From positions 2,372,798 to 2,436,797 of the forward strand of contig OZ220727.1 of NCBI GenBank assembly GCA_965116865.1: DNA of 64,000 nt, given 5' to 3'. Position 1 is the stretch's first letter. The number at the start of each line of letters is the position of its first letter. The stretch is from Acidimicrobiales bacterium. GTDB taxonomy: Bacteria > Actinomycetota > Acidimicrobiia > Acidimicrobiales > Aldehydirespiratoraceae. The position numbers and the translations under genes are program-made. The notes below the pieces were generated by a model that saw only the letters and a program-made list of their open reading frames with translations, made no database searches and was not told the DNA's origin. Below, piece by piece: positions 1,263-6,338 of this stretch.

Positions 1263-2651
1263 TCAGGCCGGGTTGCAGGTCTCGTCGGGCTCCACCGAGG
1301 GGAACGACTGCACGATCAACTGCGAGCCGTCGGCCTGGATCTCAGCCACGTAGATGGGCTGGGTCAGATGACGGCTGCCGGTGATCGCAATCTCGCCGGT
1401 CGGGGTGGTCAGCGACAGGCCCTCCATGGCGGCCGCCACCGCGGCGGTGTCTGTGGTTCCGGCCGCGTTGGCCGCGGCCGCGTACAGCAGCGCGGCGTCG
1501 TAGATGTGGGAGCTGAACGTCATGTGGGGCGGCGCATCGGCTCCGAAGCGCTCCAAGTATCGGCTGACGAACTCATTGTTGAGGGCGCTGTCCACTTCCT
1601 TGAAGTAGCCCAGCGTGACCCGCATACCTGCGGTTACCGCCGGACCCATGGCCCCCAGCACGTTCTCCTCGTAGATGTTGGCGAGACGCGGGATGGCGTC
1701 CTGGCCGATGCCGAAGTCCACCGCCTGGGTCTCGAAGGCGATGGCATCGCCGCCGACGAGCGCGGGGAAGATCAGGTCGGCGCCCGATCCCGCGATGATC
1801 TGGGCCACCGACGAGAAGTCCTGGGTGCCCAGCGGGACGTACTCCTCGCCGACCACCTCGCCGCCGGCGGCCTCGATGTACTGCCGGGCCAGCTCGAAAC
1901 TGCGGCGGGGCCACACGTAGTCGTTGCCCAGCAGGAACCAGGTCTGACCGCCCGTCTGCTCCATCATCCACGGGATCACCGGCGCCAGCTGCTGGCTGGG
2001 CACCTCGCCGGTGTTGAACATCACCGACGAGCACTCGCCGCCCTCGTACAGGGCCGTATAGATGTAGAGCACATCGGCGTCCTCCGCGAGGGGCTTGGCG
2101 GCCTGGCGTGTGGCGCTGGAATGCGTGCCGAGGACCACGTCGACGCTGTCGGAGTCGATCAGTTGCTCCATGGCCTGCCGGCCGACGGCCGGATCGGTGG
2201 CGTCGTCGGCCAGGTAGGTCTCAACAGGCCGGCCGTTGATGCCTCCAGCCGCGTTGATGTCCTCCTCGATGAACTCCGCGATGTTGGCTGTCGGGGGCCC
2301 GAACAAGCCCGCCGGTCCGCTGTTGGAGAACAGGATCCCGATGCGCACCGGCTCTCCCGAGGGCTCGGCCTGCTCCAGCGGCTCCGGCTCGGCGGGCGCC
2401 TCGGTGCTCTCAGGCTCAGGCGCCTCGGTCGTCTCCGGCTCATCGGGCGCCTCGGTGGTCTCAGGCTCGGGCATCTCCTCCGAGTCGTCCGGTTCGGCGA
2501 CGTCCGTGTCGGCCGCGGCCGGCTCAGAAGGAGTAGCCGGGGTCGCCTCGTCGTCATCCCCGCAGGCCGCGGCGATCAGAGCAAGGAGCGCGACGAACGC
2601 GGCCACAAACCACAAGCGAGACCGCGAGCGGGAGTCCGATACTGTTCTCAT
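1263..2651 (-). CDS. ABC transporter substrate-binding lipoprotein (LivJ/AmiC-type PBP1) with an acidic Pro/Glu-rich linker
   Basis: Has a signal peptide plus lipobox (LIAAACGDDDE), then a PE/TEAPE low-complexity tether and a type-1 periplasmic binding fold (IGILFSNSGPAG...LGNDYVWPRR). An AGGAGGG Shine-Dalgarno (SD) sequence precedes the ATG. Confidence 0.85.
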   Translation of the reverse strand: MRTVSDSRSRSRLWFVAAFVALLALIAAACGDDDEATPATPSEPAAADTDVAEPDDSEEMPEPETTEAPDEPETTEAPEPESTEAPAEPEPLEQAEPSGEPVRIGILFSNSGPAGLFGPPTANIAEFIEEDINAAGGINGRPVETYLADDATDPAVGRQAMEQLIDSDSVDVVLGTHSSATRQAAKPLAEDADVLYIYTALYEGGECSSVMFNTGEVPSQQLAPVIPWMMEQTGGQTWFLLGNDYVWPRRSFELARQYIEAAGGEVVGEEYVPLGTQDFSSVAQIIAGSGADLIFPALVGGDAIAFETQAVDFGIGQDAIPRLANIYEENVLGAMGPAVTAGMRVTLGYFKEVDSALNNEFVSRYLERFGADAPPHMTFSSHIYDAALLYAAAANAAGTTDTAAVAAAMEGLSLTTPTGEIAITGSRHLTQPIYVAEIQADGSQLIVQSFPSVEPDETCNPA

Positions 2652-2665
2652 GACAAAGCCCTCCT

Positions 2666-2686
2666 ATATGTGAGCAGTTATTGACA
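2666..2686. promoter_or_regulatory. Operator-like motif ATATGTGAGCAGTTATTGACA, directly upstream of the SBP SD
   Basis: A quasi-palindrome (ATATGT..ACATAT) sitting 15 nt from the SBP start. It is 18/21 identical to a motif upstream of arsR (5672-5692). Confidence 0.35.
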
Positions 2687-2866
2687 TATTGTCGGATAGG
2701 AGGGGCGCTGTCAAGTCCCGGAGGGTCGCTGCCAGACAGGAACTCGCCTTCAAGCAAGGCAAGATGCTCGAACCGCTAGGGAGACAGGGCAAGTGCTGAA
2801 CTGCGGTTCGGACGCTTACGCGGCAACGGGGCGCGACGATGACTGTCACACCCCCGTAGCATCCTT

Positions 2867-3151
2867 GTGACAACATCTGTTGGAAAAAATGGCGTTGACT
2901 CTCGAGTTATCGCGCCGAGTTATCGCGCCGAACCGGGCAAGGTGACAGCAATGGGCGACAGCTACTCCGACATCGAGATCGAGGTTCTGGACGACGTTGG
3001 CGTCCGCGAGGCCATCGACAACGCCCTCGCGCTAGCCGGGTGTAGCTGGGAGGAGTTGCAGGAGCAGGCGAGAGTCGGGCGATTCTCAACTGAAATCGCT
3101 CGGAGGACCTGGTTCGTGGTGTCGTCCCTTGTCGAACCGTCGGCGGCCTGA
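2867..3151 (+). CDS. Small hypothetical protein (the true start is probably ATG 2951, giving 66 aa)
   Basis: ORF track only. The acidic N-terminus is MGDSYSDIEIEVLDD, preceded by AAGGTGA. It overlaps the next ORF by 23 nt. No family recognised. Confidence 0.35.
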   Translation: MTTSVGKNGVDSRVIAPSYRAEPGKVTAMGDSYSDIEIEVLDDVGVREAIDNALALAGCSWEELQEQARVGRFSTEIARRTWFVVSSLVEPSAA

Positions 3152-3815
3152 CCTTCAACGTCAGGCCCGGGAGTTCGCAGGCGAGATCTCCACGGCTCTG
3201 AACGGCACCGTCACTGACGGTGTCCGCCTCTCGATCTTCATGAACGCGAGTGGTCGAGCTGTGATCGGCTACAGAGCCAGCAAGAAGAGGCCGCTGGGCG
3301 AGCCCATCACGCTCACAACCTCGCGCGCGCCGGGACAGCTGTGCCTGGACGTGCTGCACCCCCTCGATCTGAACGAATCCGGCCAATTTCTGACCACCAA
3401 CAAGAGCACCTACACCCTCAAGGAGATCGGCACAGGCGAACCAATCGTGACCTACGACTACACGAGGGACCCGCCGAACGAGTACCCCGCGGCCCACTTT
3501 CACCTTCACGGCGAGTCCGACGTCATCCGGGGCATGCTGCAACGCTGTGAGCGCGGGTCCGACAAGCCCTCCGACCTTCACTTCCCAGTGGGCGGGCGAA
3601 GGTTCCGTCCGAGTCTGGAAGACCTGATCGAGTTCTGCGTCCTCGAACGTCTGGTGACACCCCGCGGAGGTTGGCAAGAGGCGTTGGACCAGTCGAGAGA
3701 GCGCTATCGAGAACGCCAACTACAGGCTGCCGTTCGCCGCTATCAGACTCAGGCTGCTGAAGTCCTCGAGCGCGAGGGCTGGAAGGTGTCAAAGCCCGTC
3801 GAATCGAACTCGTAA
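3129..3815 (+). CDS. Hypothetical protein (contains AHFHLHGES)
   Basis: A 228-aa ORF overlapping the preceding small ORF. No family recognised by eye. GC is slightly lower than in the flanks. Confidence 0.4.
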   Translation: MSNRRRPDLQRQAREFAGEISTALNGTVTDGVRLSIFMNASGRAVIGYRASKKRPLGEPITLTTSRAPGQLCLDVLHPLDLNESGQFLTTNKSTYTLKEIGTGEPIVTYDYTRDPPNEYPAAHFHLHGESDVIRGMLQRCERGSDKPSDLHFPVGGRRFRPSLEDLIEFCVLERLVTPRGGWQEALDQSRERYRERQLQAAVRRYQTQAAEVLEREGWKVSKPVESNS

Positions 3816-3839
3816 CGCCGTCGAGTTCGGTGAGACGAA

Positions 3840-5279
3840 CTAGGAGGCTCGGGTGGCGGCGGGGAGTTCGTCCAGGACCCGTACGCCGGAACGGGTCGCT
3901 TCGCCCAGCAGCAGCGACTTGAGGGAGCCGCCCCGGGCGCAGCGCCGGGGACCGTCGAACCTGGATCTGCGCAGGCCGCTCAACAGTGCGGTCGGCTCCA
4001 CGCCCCCGCCGGCCCGGCAGGAGCGGGCCCAGGTGTGGATCGCTTCGTACACGCCCTCCGCGGCGGCCGAGACCGGTGGGGAGCACGACCCGAACCGGTC
4101 CGAGTAGCGCCGGAGGAACTCGCGGTTCTCCGAGGTGTCGAGCGCGACGAAGTAGCCCAGCGCATTCCAGGTGCCCTCACCGGACTCGCCGAGATGCTCG
4201 ACCACGGCGTCGTCCATGAGCGGGGCGAACGTCCGGATGCTGTCTCTGAGGCCGTATGCCGCGAAGTCGCGCTGGAAGCCGACATGGTCCTGGCCGACGA
4301 AGCTCGACACCACATGGTCGGCGCCGCTCCGCTGGATGGCGGCCAGCAGCGGTTCGAAGTTCTGCGATCCCAGCGGCAGGTAGCCCTCCCCGGCGACGTG
4401 GCCGTCCATGCGCTCGATGACGGCCCTCGCCGTCGCGCCGACCGCTCGGGGCCACGAGTAGTCGTTGCCGGCCAGGAACCAGCGCGACCCGCCCGTCTGT
4501 GCAGCCATGCGCGGCAGGGCCCGGTGGAGCTGGTCCATCGGCGTCTCGCCGAAACGGACGAGCAGCGGATGTTCTGCGGTCGGCTCACTCGTCGGCGTGT
4601 AGAGGTAGGGGATGCCCTCCGCTAGCGCCATGGGGGCGGTGACCGCGTAAGTGGCCGAGGAGTGCATCCCGATCACGGCGGCCAGACCCGGTGTGCGGGA
4701 CAGGCGGCGCATGGCGATCGCGCCCACGCCCGGGTCGGTGGCGTCATCGGCCACGACCAGCCTGACGGCCCGGCCCATCACACCACCGTCGGCGTTGATC
4801 TCCTCGACCGCGAGCTGCGCGCAGTTCGCAGTGGAGCGGCCCAGGATCCCCGCTGGGCCCGACAGGGAGATCAGGAGTCCCAGGGGCACCTCCCACCATC
4901 CCGTCTCGTAGCCGCCGAGCAGCCCCAACTCGGCGCCGAGGCGAGCCACCTCGAGGTGATCGATCGTCACACGGACCCGCAGCCGCGTGCCTCCGCTGTC
5001 CAACGGGTCGAAGCGGCAGACGACGCGGCCCGCCCAGGGTGTCTCGTGCATCAGGTCGATACGGCGGTTCGGCTGGCACGAGAGCACCCGGGCCGTGCCC
5101 GGCGACCGGGCCAGGCCGCCGAGGGGAAGCGCCAAGCGGACCAGCGCGCCGGGTGTGAGCAGGGGCGCCTCCGACCCGAACAGCCACCCGACGGCCCCGT
5201 CGCCCTGTCCGAAGAGTGCGAACAGCTCGCTGGGGCACGCCTCCAGCCGCAGTTCGTTGTTCAGGACGAGCTCACCCAT
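3840..5279 (-). CDS. Cytoplasmic fusion protein: SRPBCC/AHSA1-like domain joined to an AmiC/LivK-type ligand-binding (PBP1) domain
   Basis: The N-terminal ~120 aa look START/Aha1-like (the usual partner of ArsR regulators). The rest parallels the SBP at 1263-2651 (LAGNDYSWPRA, GMHSSATY, ADDATDPGVG). There is no signal peptide or lipobox. It lies 8 nt downstream of arsR. Confidence 0.7.
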   Translation of the reverse strand: MGELVLNNELRLEACPSELFALFGQGDGAVGWLFGSEAPLLTPGALVRLALPLGGLARSPGTARVLSCQPNRRIDLMHETPWAGRVVCRFDPLDSGGTRLRVRVTIDHLEVARLGAELGLLGGYETGWWEVPLGLLISLSGPAGILGRSTANCAQLAVEEINADGGVMGRAVRLVVADDATDPGVGAIAMRRLSRTPGLAAVIGMHSSATYAVTAPMALAEGIPYLYTPTSEPTAEHPLLVRFGETPMDQLHRALPRMAAQTGGSRWFLAGNDYSWPRAVGATARAVIERMDGHVAGEGYLPLGSQNFEPLLAAIQRSGADHVVSSFVGQDHVGFQRDFAAYGLRDSIRTFAPLMDDAVVEHLGESGEGTWNALGYFVALDTSENREFLRRYSDRFGSCSPPVSAAAEGVYEAIHTWARSCRAGGGVEPTALLSGLRRSRFDGPRRCARGGSLKSLLLGEATRSGVRVLDELPAATRAS

Positions 5280-5289
5280 GGGACCGCGG

Positions 5290-5652
5290 CTAGGCGCTGC
5301 GCTCTTCGACCCGGCCGACCGGGACGTCCTCCGATGCAGAGGCGTCCTGCACGGCCGACGCGAGCTGCTCCAAGGAGTTCTGGTACACGGAGGTCAGGAA
5401 GGCCACCACCGCGTCGGCCGGGGTGGAGGTGACCGAGTAGTGCCGGAACCGGCCGTCGCGCCGTTCCGCCACGAGCCCGGCCAAACGCAGGATTCGCAGG
5501 TGCGACGAGACCGCGGTGCGTCCCAGCGAATCGAAGTGCGCCGCAATCTCGCCTGCGGTCAATTCCTCGTGCTCGCCGATCAGGCTGAGGATGGCCCTTC
5601 GGGTGGGATCGGCAAGAGTTGAGAAGATGGCGTCACTGTCGGAGGGGGCCAT
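5290..5652 (-). CDS. ArsR/SmtB family transcriptional regulator
   Basis: LADPTRRAILSLIGEHEELTAGEIAAHFDSLGRTAVSSHLRILRLAGLV is the canonical ArsR wHTH. An AGGAGG SD is present. Confidence 0.9.
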   Translation of the reverse strand: MAPSDSDAIFSTLADPTRRAILSLIGEHEELTAGEIAAHFDSLGRTAVSSHLRILRLAGLVAERRDGRFRHYSVTSTPADAVVAFLTSVYQNSLEQLASAVQDASASEDVPVGRVEERSA

Positions 5653-5671
5653 CGCGCCTCCTGTGTCTGTT

Positions 5672-5692
5672 TGTCAATATTTGCGCACATAT
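5672..5692. promoter_or_regulatory. Operator-like motif TGTCAATATTTGCGCACATAT in the arsR/trpG divergent gap
   Basis: Matches 18/21 positions of the reverse complement of the motif at 2666-2686. Sits 20 nt upstream of the arsR start. Confidence 0.35.
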
Positions 5693-5759
5693 GATGCCAC
5701 ACCCGGCGGTCGTCTGTCCCTTCTAGGCGAGGTGGCACCCGACCGGTAGCGTTCCTCCG

Positions 5760-6338
5760 GTGGGACGCCGGATCGTCGTGGTCGACAACTACGACTCGTT
5801 CGTCTACATCCTGGTCCAGTACCTGGGAGAGCTCGGATCTGAGCCGCTGGTGTACCGACACGACGCGGTCACGGCCACCGAGGTCCGCGACCTCAACCCC
5901 GACGGGATCCTGATCAGTCCCGGGCCGGGCACACCCGACGACGCGGGCGTCAGCAACGACCTGCTGGCCACGCTGAGCGGCGAGGTGCCCATCCTCGGGG
6001 TGTGCCTGGGGATGCAGTGCATCGGCCAGGCGTTCGGGGGGACCGTGATCCGGGCTCCGGAGGTGATGCACGGCAAGACGTCGGTCATCGAACACGGCTC
6101 CTCAGGGGTGTTCGAGGGTCTGCCCAACCCCTTCACCGCAACCCGTTACCACTCGTTGATCGTCGAGCGGGCGTCGATCCCTTCCGTCTTGGAGGTCACC
6201 GCCACCTGCGATCAGGGCCTGGTGATGGGTCTGCGCCATCGGCACCACCCGACCGAGGGGGTGCAGTTCCATCCCGAGTCGGTGCTCACCGACGCGGGCC
6301 GGGACCTGCTCGACAACTTCCTGGCCCGCTGCCGCTAG
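5760..6338 (+). CDS. trpG: Anthranilate/aminodeoxychorismate synthase component II (class-I glutamine amidotransferase)
   Basis: VVDNYDSFVYILVQYLGELG, GPGTPDDAG, LGVCLGMQ, and HPTEGVQFHPES. Confidence 0.9.
   Translation: MGRRIVVVDNYDSFVYILVQYLGELGSEPLVYRHDAVTATEVRDLNPDGILISPGPGTPDDAGVSNDLLATLSGEVPILGVCLGMQCIGQAFGGTVIRAPEVMHGKTSVIEHGSSGVFEGLPNPFTATRYHSLIVERASIPSVLEVTATCDQGLVMGLRHRHHPTEGVQFHPESVLTDAGRDLLDNFLARCR

Follow-up and report, generated by a model that had tools for sequence, protein, structure and literature searches.

Bacterial regulators that couple the control of amide-degrading genes to a cytoplasmic relative of a solute-binding protein are known from several sources. In Rhodococcus rhodochrous, Komeda, Kobayashi and Shimizu reportedly described in 1996 two genes, nhlD and nhlC, upstream of the low-molecular-mass nitrile hydratase genes, and in strain J1 an ArsR-like gene is said to act negatively, and an AmiC-like gene positively, in induction by amides. 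In Pseudomonas aeruginosa the sensor is AmiC, which works with AmiR. For the acetamidase of Mycobacterium smegmatis, a review counts AmiC and AmiD among the positive regulators and names AmiA as a negative one (PMC12719403). Here we describe a locus from an Acidimicrobiales bacterium (contig OZ220727.1 of assembly GCA_965116865.1), lying in a stretch of 64,000 nucleotides that we call the window. It comprises an arsR gene, a gene for a fusion of an SRPBCC-fold domain with an AmiC/UrtA-type binding domain, and an operon that begins with the gene for an exported binding protein of an ABC importer, with similar sites standing before both operons. The system belongs to a kind of amide-responsive switch that is known but whose mechanism is obscure, and what is new here is a 24-bp candidate operator that is conserved from Acidimicrobiia to Rhodococcus, the assignment of the sensor N-terminus to the SRPBCC fold, and a docking model.

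The preliminary description of this DNA pointed to two 21-nucleotide sequences, ATATGTGAGCAGTTATTGACA at 2666-2686 on the forward strand near the binding-protein gene and ATATGTGCGCAAATATTGACA at 5672-5692 on the reverse strand near arsR, and both can be read directly in the sequence with 18 of 21 positions identical. Their proximity to the two genes was also given correctly, although the distances are 14 nt to the binding-protein ATG (2651) and 19 nt to the arsR ATG (5652), and not 15 and 20 as stated. A pattern search of the window with up to three mismatches returned exactly these two sites, and 100 shuffled versions gave a mean of 0.01 with none holding two. The whole genome, a single contig of 3.32 Mb with 68.5% G+C (3,324,494 bases searched), contains two sites at up to three mismatches, three at up to four, and 24 at up to five; the motif is not common, and the only two sites at the strictest threshold are those just named. 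Alignment of more distant loci revealed the full site as a 24-bp imperfect palindrome, ATATGTSA-N8-TSACATAT, built from two 8-nt halves and an 8-nt spacer. The inverted orientation once attributed to the second site is therefore without meaning, and stems from small asymmetries between half-sites. Read towards the gene, the candidate operator of the binding-protein/ABC/amidase operon (2666-2689, no strand assigned) is ATATGTCA-ataactgc-TCACATAT, the sole 16/16 match to the palindrome in the genome. The weaker operator at arsR (5669-5692, likewise unstranded), read towards arsR, is ATATGTGC-gcaaatat-TGACAAAC and agrees at 13 of 16 positions. Separately, we note two other 13/16 matches on the contig (C1), at genome positions 181795 and 2596844. 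The first of these (181795-181818, ATCTGTGA-caagaatg-TGACAAAC) lies in intergenic-looking DNA and has a right half identical to that of the arsR site, with a score that is within chance. Both matches were rejected as further sites, as chance matches are expected at 13/16.

The sites recur throughout a related set that consists of 12 of the 25 same-genus genomes searched (the window genome included) and 52 loci from genomes of other species. All 52 loci come from metagenome-assembled genomes of Acidimicrobiia, with fusion identities of 50-100%, and relatives carry the labels Candidatus Aldehydirespirator and Candidatus Poriferisodalis. Both sites are present in all 12 same-genus loci, where the upstream alignment forms a conserved block with a sharp upstream end. 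Among the wider set, 48 of 49 stretches ahead of the binding-protein gene and 48 of 51 ahead of arsR hold a site matching at 11 or more of 16 positions, with the arsR site about 40 nt ahead of the ATG in related loci. Across 41 distinct binding-protein upstream sequences, conservation reaches 1.88 bits in the left half, 1.02 in the spacer, and 1.75 in the right half, against 0.94 bits in the 30 nt upstream; the corresponding values for 46 distinct arsR upstream sequences are 1.48, 1.15, 1.44, and 0.61 bits. The half-sites exceed both the 8-nt spacer and the flanks. Perfect palindromes are found in distant loci as well, namely ATATGTGA-atacttac-TCACATAT in L060 and ACATGTCA-gcacacat-TGACATGT in L057.

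Gene linkage is equally stable. The pairing of arsR with the fusion gene holds in 52 of 52 loci, with arsR immediately upstream each time. Of the 52 loci as fetched, 49 also contain the binding-protein gene, and 43 contain the full set of binding protein, permease, permease/ATPase, ATPase, and amidase genes. The two operons stand in tandem in most loci, are divergent in L030, L032, and L059, and are split by insertions in at least five. Whether the layout is tandem, divergent or interrupted, the two sites keep to their respective genes.

Upstream of the binding-protein gene, the pattern TTGAC(C/A)-N17-CAATAT is kept in nearly all loci, and the sequence further upstream is not conserved. In the window, the putative promoter of this operon would occupy 2686-2714 on the reverse strand, with the -35 TTGACA at 2714-2709, a 17-nt spacer, and the -10 CAATAT at 2691-2686. 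The final four bases of CAATAT are also the first four of the palindrome. The -10 thus overlaps the left operator half, and a bound protein would therefore cover both the -10 and the likely transcription start. At arsR, the palindrome comes directly after a conserved TGGCAnCAT (about 5691-5699), possibly an extended -10. We infer the promoter positions at both operons from these sequence patterns. RNA libraries X1 and X2 contain contigs of related strains that span the binding-protein, fusion, and arsR genes; they are without starts, strands, or levels, and DNA carry-over is possible.

The overlap of the left half with the presumed -10 could also be taken to mean that the conserved bases are promoter or 5'-leader elements, or a leader RNA hairpin, and no operator, given that the inverted repeat could pair at 7 of 8 positions as RNA. 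However, the right half-site lies outside any promoter hexamer and is conserved as strongly as the left, the half-site asymmetries place the two sites in opposite orientations relative to their own genes, and the stem would be short and AU-rich. If the -10 is correctly placed, transcription starts inside the left half, and therefore the hairpin could not form. We consider this explanation very improbable.

The same regulator pair and the same type of palindrome were found in other lineages. A plasmid protein search returned full-length relatives on Rhodococcus plasmids. On pNit of R. rhodochrous ATCC BAA-870, the genes follow in the order ArsR, 471-aa protein, nthB, nthA, accessory protein, HoxN-type transporter, and amidase, which we take to be the layout of the nhlD-nhlC-nhlBA-nhlE-nhlF-amdA cluster of R. 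rhodochrous J1, an equation that rests on gene order. The fusion aligns with the 471-aa protein at 39% (E 2e-93) over residues 1-445, N-terminal domain included, and the repressor aligns with the pNit ArsR upstream of nthBA at 45% (E 7e-29). In the locus described here as in pNit, an ArsR gene stands directly before an AmiC-like gene, and the two pairs are homologous; the pNit proteins are named in databases just "substrate-binding protein" and "ArsR/SmtB family". When 400 other Actinomycetota genomes from an even draw were searched, the N-terminal domain of the fusion was found in one (G421). The ArsR-fusion pair of that genome (L069, 7354-9502) adjoins a haem-containing aldoxime dehydratase, an AraC regulator, an acyl-CoA ligase, and an acyl-CoA dehydrogenase. 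As a side observation, this neighbourhood connects the family of sensors with the catabolism of aldoximes, nitriles, and amides.

The best palindrome matches in these loci are as follows. In pNit, ACATGTCA-tcaggtca-TGACGTGT stands 60 nt ahead of nthB and ATATGTCA-ttgactgt-TGACTCGA directly ahead of arsR. In G421, ATATGTCA-cgaactat-TGACATGA lies between the fusion and the acyl-CoA ligase gene, and TCATGTCA-gcgcacac-TGACAGAG lies 30 nt ahead of arsR. At the paralogue locus of a further genome (G013), a perfect palindrome, ATATGTCA-agtgtcgt-TGACATAT (L013, 14141-14164), follows a promoter-like stretch, TTGACG-N17-TACATT. It is the sole strong palindrome in that locus, where no shared motif was found upstream of the amidase gene or arsR. 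Its position ahead of two-component genes hints at a regulatory cascade. That differing regulated genes share one site type and one regulator pair is the strongest argument that the ArsR protein reads the palindrome. In four separate lineages with differing neighbours, this type of palindrome is found together with the arsR-fusion pair, it is confined to this locus in the window genome, and ArsR is the sole DNA-binding gene common to all these loci. These facts make it improbable that the palindrome is read by a different factor with its gene elsewhere, for example a nitrogen or carbon regulator, and that the ArsR-fusion pair does something else. Such a factor would nevertheless suit the G013 locus, whose best palindrome precedes a two-component system, and the G421 locus, which also encodes an AraC-type regulator; moreover, DNA binding by the ArsR protein is a prediction.

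The presumed repressor is encoded at 5290-5652 on the reverse strand and is a winged-helix regulator of the ArsR/SmtB type with 120 aa. Its Pfam and NCBIfam matches lie above the family cut-offs, with 46.8 bits for HTH_20 (cut-off 27), 39.4 for HTH_5 (22), and 73.9 for NF033788 (55). No metal-sensor equivalog model reaches its cut-off for this protein. The 120 residues include zero cysteines, which leaves no cysteine-built metal or metalloid site of the alpha-3 type, and the repressor is therefore without a thiol-based sensing site of its own. By its sequence, it is a non-metal member of the ArsR/SmtB family.

The fusion gene downstream of arsR is one open frame of 479 aa (3840-5279, reverse strand). 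Full-length, stop-free copies recur in 12 of 25 same-genus genomes, that of the window included, and in the 52 loci of other species, and for this reason a frameshift or misassembly was excluded as the origin of the fusion. The N-terminal part always occurs within proteins of about 479 aa (58 protein clusters). In the model of the whole protein (pLDDT 85.5, pTM 0.86), a small domain at residues 3-117 is followed by a two-lobed binding-protein domain. The first strand of the small domain begins at residue 3, and the protein therefore has no signal peptide. The preliminary description had spoken of a signal-less paralogue of the exported protein within the fusion; the lack of a signal is borne out, and a recent copy is contradicted by the tree of binding domains. 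In this quick tree, all fusions, including that of Rhodococcus, form one group (support 93-98) apart from the exported proteins of the lineage (support 100); the sensor is therefore of an old lineage and was not copied recently from its neighbour. The exported protein and the fusion binding domain share 39% identity.

The N-terminal domain (residues 1-117; 4929-5279, reverse strand) was modelled separately with pLDDT 83.1. In order, it has a strand, a helix, five strands, and a short helix, and its model shows the helix-grip fold, a curved antiparallel sheet around helices. Foldseek gave 144 matches at E <= 0.001, with all those listed belonging to SRPBCC/AHSA1/Bet v 1 and led by bacterial AHSA1-type proteins. 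VIA-align returned 21 chains with a Z of 8 or more, and its 50 best entries were of the SRPBCC type. The last helix is short in the models (10 residues, 108-117) and leads into a linker. By sequence, the 132 N-terminal residues have no Pfam match even at E = 10, and AHSA1 has no match anywhere in the window genome (G000). Among 17 diverse family members, six match AHSA1 (best E 8.4e-4) and three match Polyketide_cyc2 (best E 1.1e-6), all weakly, and the G421 copy scores 22.5 bits in an SRPBCC-clan Pfam model, below its cut-off of 27.4. A profile of the domain found just 75 proteins among 1.84 billion representatives, 28 of them with at least 425 aa; the shorter ones may be fragments or stand-alone forms, and, judged by lengths, generic AHSA1 proteins are not included. 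An atlas look-up of residues 1-130 gave a weak lead to SRPBCC clusters, at just 0.90 and with 163-166 features in common. The domain had been described as the usual SRPBCC partner of ArsR proteins; Foldseek and VIA-align bear out the SRPBCC fold, and Pfam speaks against a standard AHSA1 or Polyketide_cyc2 type. On the models, the N-terminal domain is of the SRPBCC fold and forms a narrow, divergent subfamily that is found with this fusion.

The remainder of the fusion is a class I binding domain of the AmiC/UrtA type (residues 130-473; 3861-4892, reverse strand), presumably cytoplasmic, with 252.5 bits in Peripla_BP_6 (residues 131-445) and 151 bits in Peripla_BP_5. Its solved relatives by sequence are 8tg1 (2.8e-31), UrtA (about 1e-24), and AmiC (1pea, 3.6e-17), and by fold the urea-binding UrtA and the amide receptor AmiC are closest (AmiC TM 0.84 on the target). 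The likeness to cytoplasmic ligand sensors of the AmiC type that was proposed earlier is supported by both kinds of match. In the AmiC alignment, the pocket motif is HSSAT in the fusion and in the exported protein, YMSHT in AmiC, and WTSAS in UrtA, which yields no ligand call. Neither protein of the locus is UrtA itself: with TIGR03407 scores of 250.9 bits for the exported protein and 133.6 for the fusion against a cut-off of 492.75, both are UrtA-related, and that identity was rejected. A search with the binding domain found the same architecture, with 470-490 aa and 36-46% identity, in Streptomyces, Actinomadura, Pseudonocardia, Microbacterium, and Aeromicrobium.

We also predicted the complex of the two regulators, from alignments of 47 rows for the fusion and 16 rows for one repressor chain, together with three controls. 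The pair scored 0.70, compared with 0.00 for the best of the three controls; among solved complexes, 116 of 157 attain the 0.70 mark, and among mismatched pairs two of 215 do so. Agreement between the runs is 85% of contacts or better, and partner pLDDT is at least 73. On the side of the fusion, the predicted interface falls nearly entirely within residues 4-122, which is the SRPBCC domain, with the addition of residues 180-195 of the binding domain, and the invariant G31-W32-L33 loop makes the tightest predicted contacts. On the side of the repressor, it comprises residues 13-27 and 74-105, which correspond to helix 1 and to the C-terminal helix, where S93, L94, and L97 are invariant. ArsR proteins canonically dimerise through these two helices. 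The prediction supports direct binding of repressor and fusion, and the location of the interface on the dimerisation helices suggests that the fusion is an anti-repressor that disturbs the repressor dimer. The logic could also be reversed, with the fusion as a co-repressor that the repressor requires to stay on the DNA, in a complex that is dissolved by amide, or with ligand-bound fusion strengthening repression, for example as product feedback; this would resemble AmiC, which silences AmiR until amide arrives. The predicted complex is silent on which state binds DNA, and the weaker arsR operator is compatible with either logic. Nevertheless, an interface on the dimerisation helices fits inactivation more easily than help in DNA binding, the reported roles of the Rhodococcus genes (AmiC-like positive, ArsR-like negative) also speak against it, and we regard reversed logic as rather unlikely, although it is the least unlikely of the alternatives weighed here.

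It is conceivable, and we put it forward tentatively, that the SRPBCC domain is a dedicated module for gripping the repressor, which would take helix 1 and the C-terminal helix of ArsR in place of its own long terminal helix, while a ligand in the AmiC-type domain opens or closes the grip. Many bacterial arsR genes presumably adjoin genes for stand-alone SRPBCC proteins. If the gripping-module idea were true, such stand-alone proteins could be small-molecule sensors and anti-repressors of ArsR neighbours that are themselves blind to the signal.

The operon preceded by the stronger site starts with the gene for the exported binding protein (462 aa; 1263-2651, reverse strand; Peripla_BP_6, 313.5 bits). 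Its N-terminus is of the lipoprotein type, with a basic-hydrophobic stretch that ends in AAAC and is followed by a low-complexity linker. This linker extends for about 70 residues between the lipobox cysteine and the folded domain, and is acidic and rich in Pro, Thr, and Glu, with repeated PEPETTEAP-like units. Further along the reverse strand lie a permease gene (236-1090) and the first part of a gene for a permease/ATPase fusion (1 to about 242), which runs off the window. Outside the window, the operon continues on the same strand with an ATPase (L014, 8541-9248) and an amidase (L014, 7146-8510). Pfam matches in this group of genes are to BPD_transp_2, ABC_tran, and Amidase PF01425 (328.6 bits). 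The amidase falls into no specific family; its best match, indoleacetamide hydrolase, has 282 bits and is below the cut-off of 532. Since the regulated operon ends in an amidase gene, the imported solute is probably an amide.

Taken together, we think it probable, if well short of certain, that the locus encodes an amide-responsive repressor/sensor switch akin to the type ahead of Rhodococcus nitrile hydratase genes. The proposal is based on the sites and how well they are conserved, on the folds of the domains, on gene linkage, and on the homology to the Rhodococcus pair; DNA binding by the repressor, the ligand class, direct contact between repressor and fusion, and the anti-repressor direction are what we infer from these. 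A dimer of the cysteine-free ArsR protein would bind the 24-bp palindrome. At the binding-protein promoter, it would cover the -10 and the likely start, and would thereby block the operon of the binding protein, two permease/ATPase genes, ATPase, and amidase, while the weaker operator at arsR would allow for autoregulation of the arsR-fusion operon. The AmiC/UrtA-type domain of the cytoplasmic fusion would bind the imported amide or a close product, the SRPBCC domain would hold the repressor through helix 1 and the C-terminal helix, and ligand binding would alter this grip such that the repressor leaves the DNA. The core of this proposal, with one ArsR regulator, one cytoplasmic AmiC-like sensor, and an operator shared by both operons, had been put forward in the preliminary description and agrees with all computational tests run.

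Several observations weigh against the proposed switch. By palindrome score alone, the arsR site is near chance (at 13/16, three sites in the genome and one in a simulated genome), and therefore its case rests on conservation and position and not on score. L053 and L056 are without a site near arsR. In G013, the genes behind the perfect palindrome are not the ABC-amidase genes but those of a histidine kinase and its neighbouring LuxR-type response regulator. A sigma-70 promoter scan of 2500-5900 called no promoter, because CAATAT fits TATAAT at just 3 of 6 positions. With regard to the complex, a single repressor chain leaves the canonical dimer surface free, and the placement of the partner there may be artefactual. 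By manual count, invariant residues are not enriched at the predicted interface, either in the N-terminal domain of the fusion (8 of 21, with 6 expected) or in the repressor (11 of 31, with 9.6 expected). Finally, the sign of regulation and the link to the NhlD/NhlC genetics are tentative.

The locus of the window also carries a cassette of about 1.12 kb (2718-3841, forward strand) that stands outside the proposed switch and contains orf94 (2867-3151) and orf228 (3129-3815). It sits exactly between the stop codon of the fusion gene and the -35 of the binding-protein promoter; in most related loci, the fusion and binding-protein genes are about 110-160 nt apart. Contigs in public runs X1 and X3 join 2717/2720 straight to 3840/3842 without the cassette, and no cover was found over 2783-3638 in the RNA runs X1 or X2. 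Both orf94 and orf228 are without a match in Pfam and NCBIfam. In the atlas, the clusters nearest to orf228 are hypothetical proteins of Actinomycetota, one of which is auto-named as an AbiEi-like antitoxin. In other loci, the same intergenic slot holds insertions of 0.5-5.5 kb (L015 9437-14963, L052 9437-12381, and further ones in L023, L024, and L029), and homologues of orf94 are present in some of these, encoded on the opposite strand. This slot, which follows the fusion and precedes the binding-protein promoter, looks like an insertion hot spot.

If the proposed switch is correct, it would supply a defined operator and a protein-protein mechanism for the amide and nitrile regulators of industrial Rhodococcus strains, as well as a route by which a signal can enter an ArsR protein that has neither a metal nor a thiol site. 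It would also make amide scavenging a regulated trait in an uncultured lineage of Acidimicrobiia, and the pair could serve as a compact amide-inducible expression switch.

Comparison with described systems shows which parts of this arrangement are shared. The N-terminal domain has the helix-grip fold of stand-alone bacterial SRPBCC/AHSA1 proteins (PDB 3q63, 3pu2, 2m89), and VIA-align gave Z 9.6 with an rmsd of 3.0 over 96 residues for 3q63, and also Z 9.4 with an rmsd of 3.5 over 106 residues; unlike those proteins, it has no Pfam match and its last helix (108-117) is short. The acetamidase system of M. smegmatis is similarly actinobacterial and amide-inducible, and similarly combines an AmiC homologue with DNA-binding regulators (PMC12719403). 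The proteobacterial MeAmi operon (bioRxiv 10.1101/2024.02.22.581678) likewise joins an exported binding protein, an ABC importer, and an amidase to a cytosolic Peripla_BP_5 paralogue that is proposed to be the sensor; however, the exported protein is there of a different family (SBP_bac_5), the output is ANTAR, and neither an SRPBCC domain nor ArsR is part of it. As with AmiC-AmiR of P. aeruginosa (PDB 1pea, 1qnl, 1qo0), a cytoplasmic, signal-less class I amide sensor would control an amidase operon via protein-protein contact. In the locus described here, however, the output partner would be a DNA-binding repressor of the ArsR family and not an RNA-binding antiterminator with an ANTAR domain, no such domain was found among the genes of the locus or its relatives, and an extra SRPBCC domain is predicted as the point of contact. 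With the Rhodococcus nitrile hydratase regulators, the locus shares arsR followed by a gene for a protein of about 470 aa, 8-N8-8 palindromes before arsR and before the regulated genes, and an amidase among the latter; it differs in that an ABC importer and an amidase are regulated, without nitrile hydratase or cobalt transporter, and in that the host is an uncultured member of the Acidimicrobiia.

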